DNA of 5,085 bases, taken from assembly GCA_038889235.1 (NCBI GenBank), contig JAWAHN010000008.1, positions 1 to 5,085 on the forward strand, read 5' to 3'. Position numbers and translations under genes: made by a program. Below are positions 4,353 to 4,852 of the stretch, piece after piece. This DNA is from Candidatus Jordarchaeales archaeon (GTDB lineage Archaea > Asgardarchaeota > Jordiarchaeia > Jordiarchaeales > Freyrarchaeaceae). The notes beneath the pieces were generated by a model, which made no database searches, was not told where the DNA came from, and worked only from the letters and a program-made list of their open reading frames with translations. How positions within the stretch are numbered: the first letter of the stretch is position 1; each line of letters begins with the position of its first letter.

Positions 4353-4679
4353 ATGGTTTTGTACACTTCAAACGAAGTGGTCATTAACGTCGAAGAAGCG
4401 ATTATCATGCCTGCTCCAACCTTACCTCCTCCATCGCAGGTGTCAGTTAGGTTGAGCGCGGACAAGACAAGGTGCTATGTTGGAGACACTGTTAACTTTA
4501 CTGTAACCGTGACTGGCTTGGACGGCTGGTTCCAGATAGCGTTGATAGCGAAGGGGAGAGGGGCAATAGCTATAACCGCACAGCCGTTGACGAAGGCTGG
4601 CACAACTGTCAGGATACCTTGGACGCCGTGGGAGCCCGGTGTATATACAATTTATGCAGAAGTAGGAGCGTTGTTGTAG
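4353..4679 (+). CDS. 108-aa Ig-like (PKD/CARDB-type beta-sandwich) protein with N-terminal SNEV strand, Pro-rich linker and no C-terminal G strand
   Basis: LSADKTRCYVGDTVNFTVTVT (A-A'-B strands) and WTPWEPGVYTIYAEV (E strand, Tyr corner, F strand); stop 4 residues after the F strand. Confidence 0.8.
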   Translation: MVLYTSNEVVINVEEAIIMPAPTLPPPSQVSVRLSADKTRCYVGDTVNFTVTVTGLDGWFQIALIAKGRGAIAITAQPLTKAGTTVRIPWTPWEPGVYTIYAEVGALL

Positions 4680-4852
4680 TGGAGACGTATAGATCAAACG
4701 AAGTGACGGTGGCCGTAAGCTCGAAGCCAACGGTAATGGAGGAGAGGGAAGGAGCTGACGTTCTAACAATGCTTTTCGAGTACATACCTTTGATCCTAGG
4801 AGTGGCCGTGCTGGTAACGGTTCTGGGCATGTTGAGGAGGGGCAGGGACTAG
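4679..4852 (+). CDS. 57-aa single-pass membrane protein with N-terminal SNEV strand (METYRSNEVTVAV...YIPLILGVAVLVTVLGMLRRGRD)
   Basis: GTG overlaps the upstream TAG (TAGTG), AGGAG at 4664-4668; 18-residue hydrophobic helix followed by RRGR; the ORF-track start at 4619 is probably too early. Confidence 0.75.
   Translation: METYRSNEVTVAVSSKPTVMEEREGADVLTMLFEYIPLILGVAVLVTVLGMLRRGRD

Follow-up and report, generated by a model that had tools for sequence, protein, structure and literature searches.

Why should an immunoglobulin (Ig)-like domain be encoded by a gene that stops just before the last strand of the fold, when the next gene begins with a strand of the very type that is missing? The question is raised by positions 4353-4852 of a stretch of 5085 bp (the window in what follows), which is the entire contig C8 of the 2.14-Mb, 8-contig metagenome-assembled genome (MAG) of a Candidatus Jordarchaeales archaeon. 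Two open reading frames (ORFs) are concerned, ORF1, which codes for an Ig-like protein of 108 residues, and ORF2, which codes for a membrane protein of 57 residues, and both open with a YxSNEVxVxV strand. They are separate genes, maintained by selection, that divide between them the parts of a single Ig fold. As for the meaning of this division, comparison of sequences tips the balance, somewhat beyond even, towards an Ig domain in two pieces, its last strand being supplied in trans by a tail-anchored membrane protein, in a virus related to Metallosphaera turreted icosahedral virus (MTIV). We set out below the evidence for the split, its fate in diverged relatives, the explanations that compete to account for it and the known systems to which it may be compared.

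Separate genes with a split Ig architecture

Both genes lie on the forward strand. ORF1 (4353-4679, from ATG 4353 to TAG 4679) begins with a spare G-type strand (residues 3-13, LYTSNEVVINV, 4359-4391), continues with a Pro-rich linker (residues 14-29, EEAIIMPAPTLPPPSQ, 4392-4439) and then with an Ig-like sandwich that runs from strand A to strand F (residues 30-108, 4440-4676), as recognized by a profile match, by the alignment of homologs and by structure prediction. It has no G strand: its C-terminal end, GVYTIYAEVGALL, stops 4 residues past GVYTIYAEV. ORF2 (4679-4852, from GTG 4679 to TAG 4852) has the layout of a tail-anchored protein, with an N-terminal G-type strand (residues 3-14, TYRSNEVTVAVS, 4685-4720), a linker, one hydrophobic transmembrane (TM) helix at approximately residues 28-52 (4760-4834) and a basic tail, RRGRD (4835-4849). 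Its frame is -1 relative to ORF1, and stop and start overlap as TAGTG (4677-4681), GTG 4679 making use of the G of ORF1's TAG. The longest possible frame of ORF2 begins at TTG 4619; GTG 4679 is favoured as the start because a Shine-Dalgarno-like AGGAG (4664-4668) lies 10 nucleotides upstream of it and because it is the start called in the window and in two close relatives, L010 and L011. On reading the proteins, no signal peptide is visible in either, and the single TM helix of ORF2 lies no more than about 30 residues from the C-terminus, as in tail-anchored proteins. The RRGRD tail resembles the C-terminus of a larger anchor homolog (P0086, ...GRRGRD), and ORF2 looks like a minimal anchor reduced to strand, last helix and tail. 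After the initiator, the N-termini of ORF1 (VLYTSNEVVINV) and ORF2 (ETYRSNEVTVAV) have 6 of 12 residues in common, in the same register, a likeness with a binomial P of ~8e-5 at the amino-acid composition of the window.

That the sandwich is truncated, and at which point, is visible from the families to which it is related. The Big_3_5 profile matches ORF1 over its positions 2-67 of 88, leaving out the last strand (21.2 bits where the cut-off is 35.5, E 4e-4), and PKD matches the homolog in a more distant relative, L022, over positions 4-65 of 80, again without the last strand and below the curated cut-off. A phmmer search of the full library found 81 proteins matching ORF1 at E <= 1e-3, mostly very long tandem-Ig surface proteins in which many repeats are matched. 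Since its Pfam score is below threshold in spite of these 81 matches, ORF1 is best taken as a diverged relative of the Big_3_5/PKD/DUF11-like group and as a member of no curated family. When it is aligned to the tandem-Ig homologs, residues 1-13 lie opposite the G strand of the repeat before, and its end coincides with the end of the F strand; profile coverage, homolog alignment and the lack of a Protein Data Bank (PDB) Ig match until a strand is added, of which more below, all describe an Ig-like fold without its C-terminal G strand. Four single-chain homologs (P0066, P0076, P0059 and P0050) end with an F strand, an SNxVxVxV G strand, a Pro-rich linker and a TM helix, in this order; in P0066 the C-terminus reads ...GVYTVYAKADNIQSNTVSVEVKPPPPSP, followed by the TM helix. 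The ORF2 strand is colinear with the G strand of such cis-complete homologs, and hhalign matches it to the N-terminal strand of larger anchors. In its sequence, then, the ORF1-ORF2 pair lines up from end to end with the C-terminal part of an ordinary multi-Ig protein with a membrane anchor, but for a cut in the F-G loop.

Is the cut real? The two genes belong to a mosaic cassette (4162-4931) that DNA comparison finds at 90-94% nucleotide identity on L010 and L011, which are contigs of hot-spring MAGs where it stands among other genes, and the TAGTG junction is kept in both. ORF2 of L010 has lost a GGA directly after GTG, that of L011 has gained a GAA, and there is no other difference in ORF2 length. 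Contigs from three further hot-spring runs (X2, X3 and X5), belonging to three different studies, span the junction with an identical overlap; the only changes are the loss of 3 nucleotides at 4681 and the gain of GAA at 4738, and no joint between ORF1 and ORF2 is found in these contigs. All indels among relatives are multiples of three. Of the changes that separate ORF1 of the window from that of L010, 21 are synonymous and 5 non-synonymous, a ratio of non-synonymous to synonymous rates (pN/pS) of 0.08, and in ORF2 there are 8 of each (pN/pS 0.33), as against values of ~1 or higher in both off-frames of ORF1 and in an upstream ORF at 4139-4339. Codons 1-18 of ORF1 show four synonymous changes and no replacement, the non-synonymous changes of the N-terminal part all falling in the linker; M19 is replaced by Ile in L010. 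A start at M19 is therefore not general, and translation includes the N-terminal strand. These data exclude both a sequencing error and a recent pseudogene.

The original prediction, made from the letters of the window, had described two genes overlapping by TAGTG that share an N-terminal motif in the same register, the first with a Pro-rich linker and an Ig sandwich devoid of G strand, the second with a linker, one TM helix and a basic tail, and neither with a signal peptide or a visible chaperone. This description holds in all its parts, the last of them on reading the sequences and on Pfam scans. Among the ways in which it might fail, the prediction had also named a single-base error hiding one continuous ORF and a translation start at M19 (4407); the first is contradicted by L010, L011 and the three further runs, which all keep the split, and the second by the Ile of L010 and by the purely synonymous changes of codons 1-18.

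One more trait of the junction deserves mention. Over 64 nucleotides (4617-4680), in which ORF1 ends and ORF2 starts, there is no substitution among the window, L010 and L011, when about one position in ten varies elsewhere in both genes. This invariance could come from overlapping constraints (the Shine-Dalgarno motif, translational coupling, an open -1 frame) or from chance.

The same break in diverged relatives, and structure models

Close relatives may share an accident. It is therefore worth turning to ORF1 homologs that are 46-53% identical, on contigs L022, L019 and L016, where the homologous two-gene cassettes that the original prediction had proposed to look for were indeed found. They keep the split between F and G: the Ig gene ends just past the F strand and the following membrane-protein gene starts with M-x(2,3)-SNEV. 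In L022, the Ig gene (106 residues, 53% identity to ORF1) starts with MAYTSNEVIIVVEAPPAP and ends with YYVHAEVYSIPIYW; the anchor gene follows in the same frame after a TGA and two codons, and codes for 179 residues that begin with MAYTSNEVTIVVEE and end with two TM helices. L019 has the same geometry, its Ig gene being truncated by the end of the contig. In L016, a homolog of 103 residues (P0007) is followed by a PKD-like gene of 86 residues in the +1 frame, then by an anchor homolog in the -1 frame, which starts with M-IIA-SNEVVITVES. This PKD-like gene (680-940) also ends right past the F strand (GTYKFKVRCTF) and has no N-terminal SNEV strand; from its sequence, it could be an acceptor-only (tip) part. 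Taken together, the junctions have a -1 frame with overlap in the window, the same frame with a TGA and two codons in L022 and L019, and a +1 followed by a -1 frame in L016. Three junction geometries for one and the same break in the fold argue against frameshifting, read-through or splicing.

The two N-terminal strands also resemble one another within each locus. In L022, 11 of 13 residues are identical between the paired N-termini (P ~1e-11), and in L016, 8 of 11. The L022 pair is near-identical as protein and uses different synonymous codons, which points to selection on the peptide and not to gene conversion. The anchor starts are preceded by a Shine-Dalgarno-like motif, GGTGAGG in L016, L019 and L022, AGGAG in the window. 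A fourth contig, L023, displays the alternative arrangement: its Ig protein has the G strand in cis (SEVWSNIVYVHG), followed by a charged linker and a TM helix of its own, and the next gene codes for an anchor homolog, P0086, which has 52% identity with the body of the L022 anchor and lacks the 22-residue N-terminal extension that holds the strand. Either the Ig gene ends with the strand or the next gene begins with it, as expected if the strand serves one domain in both layouts.

Beyond these contigs, relatives are few. Searches of 60 related genomes gave nothing below E 0.01, DNA searches of plasmid and phage collections with the whole window gave no match, and protein and locus searches of genome, viral and metagenome contig collections returned chance or very distant matches only, among them cupredoxin-like domains in large phage proteins, which were rejected. 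A few small metagenomic proteins without signal peptide, P0044 (L018), P0017 and P0040 (L020) and P0038 (L017), also open with a G-type strand, MVSVETYKSNVIEITV being one instance, and continue with Ig domains that are complete or lack their G strand; sequences of this kind suggest that orphan N-terminal G strands may exist beyond this virus group. The multi-Ig genes of L020 and L021 that are broken in mid-domain look like ordinary decay or repeat misassembly, and we did not use them as support.

Structure prediction allows us to ask which of the two strands the domain prefers. Folded on its own by AlphaFold2 (AF2) with a 28-row alignment, ORF1 has a mean predicted local distance difference test score (pLDDT) of 77, with 83-88 in the domain and less than 50 in the linker (residues 15-28). 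Residues 3-5 and 9-13 are given as beta-strand at a pLDDT of ~67, a statement about secondary structure only and not about coordinates; the likeliest account of this model, at moderate confidence, is that AF2 caps the open edge of ORF1 with its own N-terminal strand. For L022, the TGA between the two genes was read as W (P0087) and residues 1-131 of this read-through product were folded. Here the mean pLDDT is 84, the anchor strand (residues 110-113 and 117-122) is beta-strand at a pLDDT of ~93, and no secondary structure is assigned to the spare strand at the N-terminus. A PDB search with this model finds at least 500 Ig domains at E <= 1e-3, when the monomer model of window ORF1 finds no match at that threshold. 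In the same way, a BatD/DUF11-like Pfam profile is covered over positions 2-92 of 92 with the anchor strand added, as against 2-24 without it. In these models, the anchor strand is shown to fit as a G strand and only one of the two strands is accommodated. A prediction of the complex of two copies of ORF1 with residues 1-32 of ORF2 scored 0.68, 0.00 and 0.00 in three runs, and we used it neither for nor against any reading.

Proposed membrane tethering, the viral setting and competing explanations

How would such a pair operate? That the ORF2 strand completes the ORF1 domain in trans, and so fixes ORF1 to the membrane, is what we judge probable from the comparison of sequences. The N-terminal strand of ORF2 would pair with the exposed F edge of ORF1 and hold the Ig domain, inside the cytoplasm, at a membrane that is most likely the inner membrane of the virus; signal peptide, chaperone and usher would then all be dispensable. 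The spare strand of ORF1, carried by its 16-residue Pro-rich linker, would first cap the groove of its own domain in cis; the anchor strand would then displace it, and the freed strand would enter the groove of another ORF1, making a short chain, or that of another virion protein, making a bridge. Formation of a head-to-tail chain of ORF1 is a tentative proposal, to be placed on the doubtful side. From the original prediction there remain the separate cistrons, the Ig domain without G strand, the anchor that bears one and a viral setting devoid of signal peptide and chaperone, together with comparative evidence in favour of completion in trans, and what it added to this, a fibre with its length set by stoichiometry and a terminator role for ORF2, stays conjectural. 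One may go a step further and imagine a viral donor-strand exchange that does without chaperone, usher and secretion, where self-capped subunits swap strands and assemble, on a membrane anchor, into a nicked and non-covalent counterpart of a tandem-Ig stalk. To this we grant rather little credence; L016 would, on the same view, provide three kinds of part, a tip domain that only accepts a strand, a stalk subunit that both accepts and donates one, and an anchor that only donates.

The viral reading of the element comes from its synteny. Positions 1-3935 of the window are colinear with 3777-7708 of L019, an MTIV-like contig of 10 kb in which the Ig cassette is located elsewhere. Eleven L019 proteins match those of the window at 49-94% amino-acid identity (most at 72-94%), among them a 325-residue protein with an HNHPSS...SEQD motif of JAB/RadC type and a coiled-coil protein with poly-Glu tails. 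L019 (8071-8487) and L022 (4181-4585) code for homologs of the MTIV 'structural protein c137' and of SPV3 and MTIV3 proteins, at 32-42% identity. A c137-type gene is present in L019, L022 and L016 and absent from the 5-kb window; L022 (3615-3848) also matches a second MTIV virion protein. The Ig gene lies directly 3' of the c137-like gene in L022 and in L016. The window probably represents some half of the genome of a small virus, binned into the MAG. For MTIV3, lipids have been found in purified virions and an inner membrane under the capsid was judged likely (PMC10101205). A membrane-anchored Ig module assembled in the cytoplasm would fit a virion component, which would explain the absence of export signals. 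The MAG of one sister contig is labelled Nezhaarchaeales, and the CRISPR spacers of the present MAG do not match the window or its relatives. L022 carries, near both ends of its 10.5 kb (1-544 and 9883-10426), a 544-nucleotide direct repeat of 93% identity that duplicates part of a gene; because the copies differ, it is not an assembly overlap.

Several observations weigh against completion in trans within a virus of this type. The first is the AF2 monomer itself, with its beta-strands at residues 3-5 and 9-13. In the read-through model, the anchor strand is artificially tethered, AF2 favours canonical F-G hairpins, and the protein folded is that of L022, 53% identical, and not that of the window. 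The likeness between the Ig domain of L023 and ORF1 is weak (hhalign E 1e-4 over 30 columns), and the whole family amounts to a handful of hot-spring contigs from few lineages. A capsid gene is absent from the window contig, for which the viral reading rests on synteny with L019. The positive-inside rule would place the N-terminus of ORF2 away from the cytoplasm, beyond the reach of a leaderless ORF1. Finally, the binding of ORF1 to ORF2 is a proposal drawn from comparison, which supports it well.

The competitor that survives best, which we nevertheless hold to be unlikely, makes ORF1 a circularly permuted, self-complemented Ig domain: its N-terminal strand would sit permanently in the G position, there would be no polymerization and no need of ORF2, the strand of which would be an evolutionary leftover or would bind something else. 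The strands that AF2 puts beside a confident domain are what one would expect in this case, and we estimate that the 16-residue linker could span the domain. However, the anchor strand, SNEVxIxVE, is kept in lineages 46-53% identical, and more strongly than the rest of the proteins; the linkers of homologs have some 10-12 residues (P0038, P0007), which we take to be marginal for folding back; and the cis strand, with its pLDDT of only ~67, is left unpaired when the anchor strand is present.

A second possibility retains the pairing of ORF1 with its anchor and changes the destination of the spare strand, which would enter a capsid or turret protein, so that ORF1 would be a bridge tying the shell to the inner membrane. 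The position of the Ig gene immediately 3' of a c137-like structural gene in L022 and L016, and the inner membrane likely in MTIV-type virions (PMC10101205), are in keeping with it; in the window, L010 and L011, however, the cassette stands away from capsid genes and moves as a unit, and we find this bridge quite improbable.

Recoding is very improbable. Here a bulge-helix-bulge mini-intron, a -1 frameshift or stop read-through would fuse the pieces into one ordinary protein made of Ig domain, G strand and TM helix. An intron of 3n+2 nucleotides would restore the frame, the -1 frame is open for ~60 codons 5' of GTG 4679, and the 64 nucleotides at 4617-4680 are invariant among the close relatives. 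All frame-restoring bulge-helix-bulge candidates (two 3-nucleotide bulges and a 4-bp helix) at the junctions of the window, L010, L011, L022 and L016 were scored, and the score was calibrated on real tRNA introns of the same genome, which reach 19-25 with central helices made of GC pairs throughout. In the window, 13 is the score of the best sensible candidate, and 414 of 500 shuffles attain it; the best candidates of L022 and L016 are equalled by 135 of 500 and 382 of 500 shuffles of their own, and the intron was rejected. (Several tRNA genes of the MAG, on C1 and C2, have 14-nucleotide introns of near-identical build, with an all-GC 4-bp central helix and an AAAG loop.) Moreover, the best L022 candidate is broken in L019 by an uncompensated base change. 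A -1 frameshift was rejected in its turn, there being no X XXY YYZ heptamer on the reading of 4600-4680 and the frame relation differing among lineages. Three lineages would require three different recoding events, and the orphan N-terminal strand of ORF1-type proteins, behind a promoter-like, non-coding spacer, would be left unexplained; the runs examined hold no spliced joint, X5 being only guessed to be RNA, and in the ~3% of the metatranscriptome X11 that was covered, too small a share to weigh either way, no read falls on this stretch.

That the ORFs are functionless fragments of a once continuous multi-Ig gene is scarcely credible, for all that a decayed copy of junction and strand persists upstream and that broken multi-Ig genes occur in other metagenome contigs (L020, for example), given strong purifying selection, in-frame indels only, conserved starts and Shine-Dalgarno motifs, and the same split in distant lineages. 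A covalent bond linking the SNEV Asn to the ADKT Lys, as isopeptide or ester cross-link, was considered and found unlikely, since both positions vary in homologs, to Arg and others.

The decayed copy just mentioned lies 5' of ORF1 on the forward strand (4261-4300) and repeats the junction and the G-strand codons, TTGTTTGAGTGGAG...TCAAACAA: TTGTTTGAGTGGAG corresponds to TTGTTGTAGTGGAG and TCAAACAA to TCAAACGAA. It was recognized from recurring sequence families, its pN/pS is ~1 in every frame (the ORF at 4139-4339 covers it), its in-frame reading is VEVPSNNRLC followed by a stop, and it contains an 8-bp hairpin; it may be what is left of a former tandem unit, or it may act as a regulatory hairpin. 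Related palindromes, at 4186-4203 (ATACCCAAAATTGGGTAT) and 4894-4924 (CTTCATAAACCC...GGGTTTATGGAG), flank the 770-bp cassette, and may be operators, terminators or recombination sites of a mobile cassette.

Comparison with known systems

Donor-strand complementation is known from the secreted cellular pili of bacteria and, more recently, of archaea. Full-text literature searches for such a mechanism in archaeal viruses or virions found cellular pili only. If our preferred reading, completion of ORF1 in trans by the ORF2 strand, is true, the locus would hold a natural split-domain 'tag and catcher' pair working at hot-spring temperatures, and a virus with an inner membrane could fix a surface or turret protein to that membrane without a covalent bond. 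In addition, it would illustrate clearly how a gene boundary can migrate within one fold, the G strand having moved from the end of a gene to the start of the next. The two proteins are small, with 108 and 57 residues, and for the engineer a heat-stable pair of domain and peptide could serve as a protein-ligation tool.

Among viruses, MTIV1-3 and SPV3 resemble the relatives of the window element in the c137-type structural protein, in the second virion protein and in contigs of ~10 kb. They differ in that tblastn with the L022 Ig and anchor proteins finds no match at E <= 1e-3 in the MTIV1 or MTIV3 record, and in that the contigs studied here were binned in Asgard-like and Nezhaarchaeales-labelled MAGs, not in Sulfolobales.

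Chaperone-usher pili (Pap/Fim) come to mind at once, as their Ig-like subunits lack a C-terminal G strand and carry an N-terminal extension of G-strand character, and as their terminator, PapH, is a last component that, like ORF2, would donate a strand and could not be extended. Here, in contrast, there is no Sec signal, and Pfam scans of the proteins of the window, L019 and L022 reveal no PapD-like chaperone and no usher; the domain is Big/PKD/DUF11-like and has no sequence relation to fimbrial families; the putative terminator is an integral membrane protein; and the setting is that of an archaeal virus. A comparison may also be made with archaeal filaments, namely the threads of Sulfolobus (10.1101/2022.04.26.489512), the bundling pili related to TasA (PMC12337348) and the Tat-fimbriae (PMC11821415), in which beta-sandwich subunits are linked by a donated N-terminal strand with no classical usher. 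They are secreted cellular pilins that form long homopolymers, Tat-dependent in the two halophile cases, whereas the genes considered here would be viral, have no export signal and place one donor strand on a separate membrane protein.

Single-chain multi-Ig surface proteins (P0066, P0076, P0059 and P0050) have a homologous domain and an identical order of elements; their signal peptide and several tandem domains all belong to one chain, whereas the window has a cut in the F-G loop and a separate start codon for each of the two pieces. There remain the domains that were split on purpose. SpyTag/SpyCatcher and the split and religated ester-bond domain (PDB 7ui8, which is among the weak structural neighbours of the ORF1 model) likewise consist of an Ig-like domain deprived of a terminal strand and completed by a short strand-bearing peptide. 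These are man-made and covalently locked, and here no covalent bond is indicated. With this difference in mind, the nearest functional analogy for ORF1 and ORF2 would be an engineered split Ig domain such as SpyTag/SpyCatcher.

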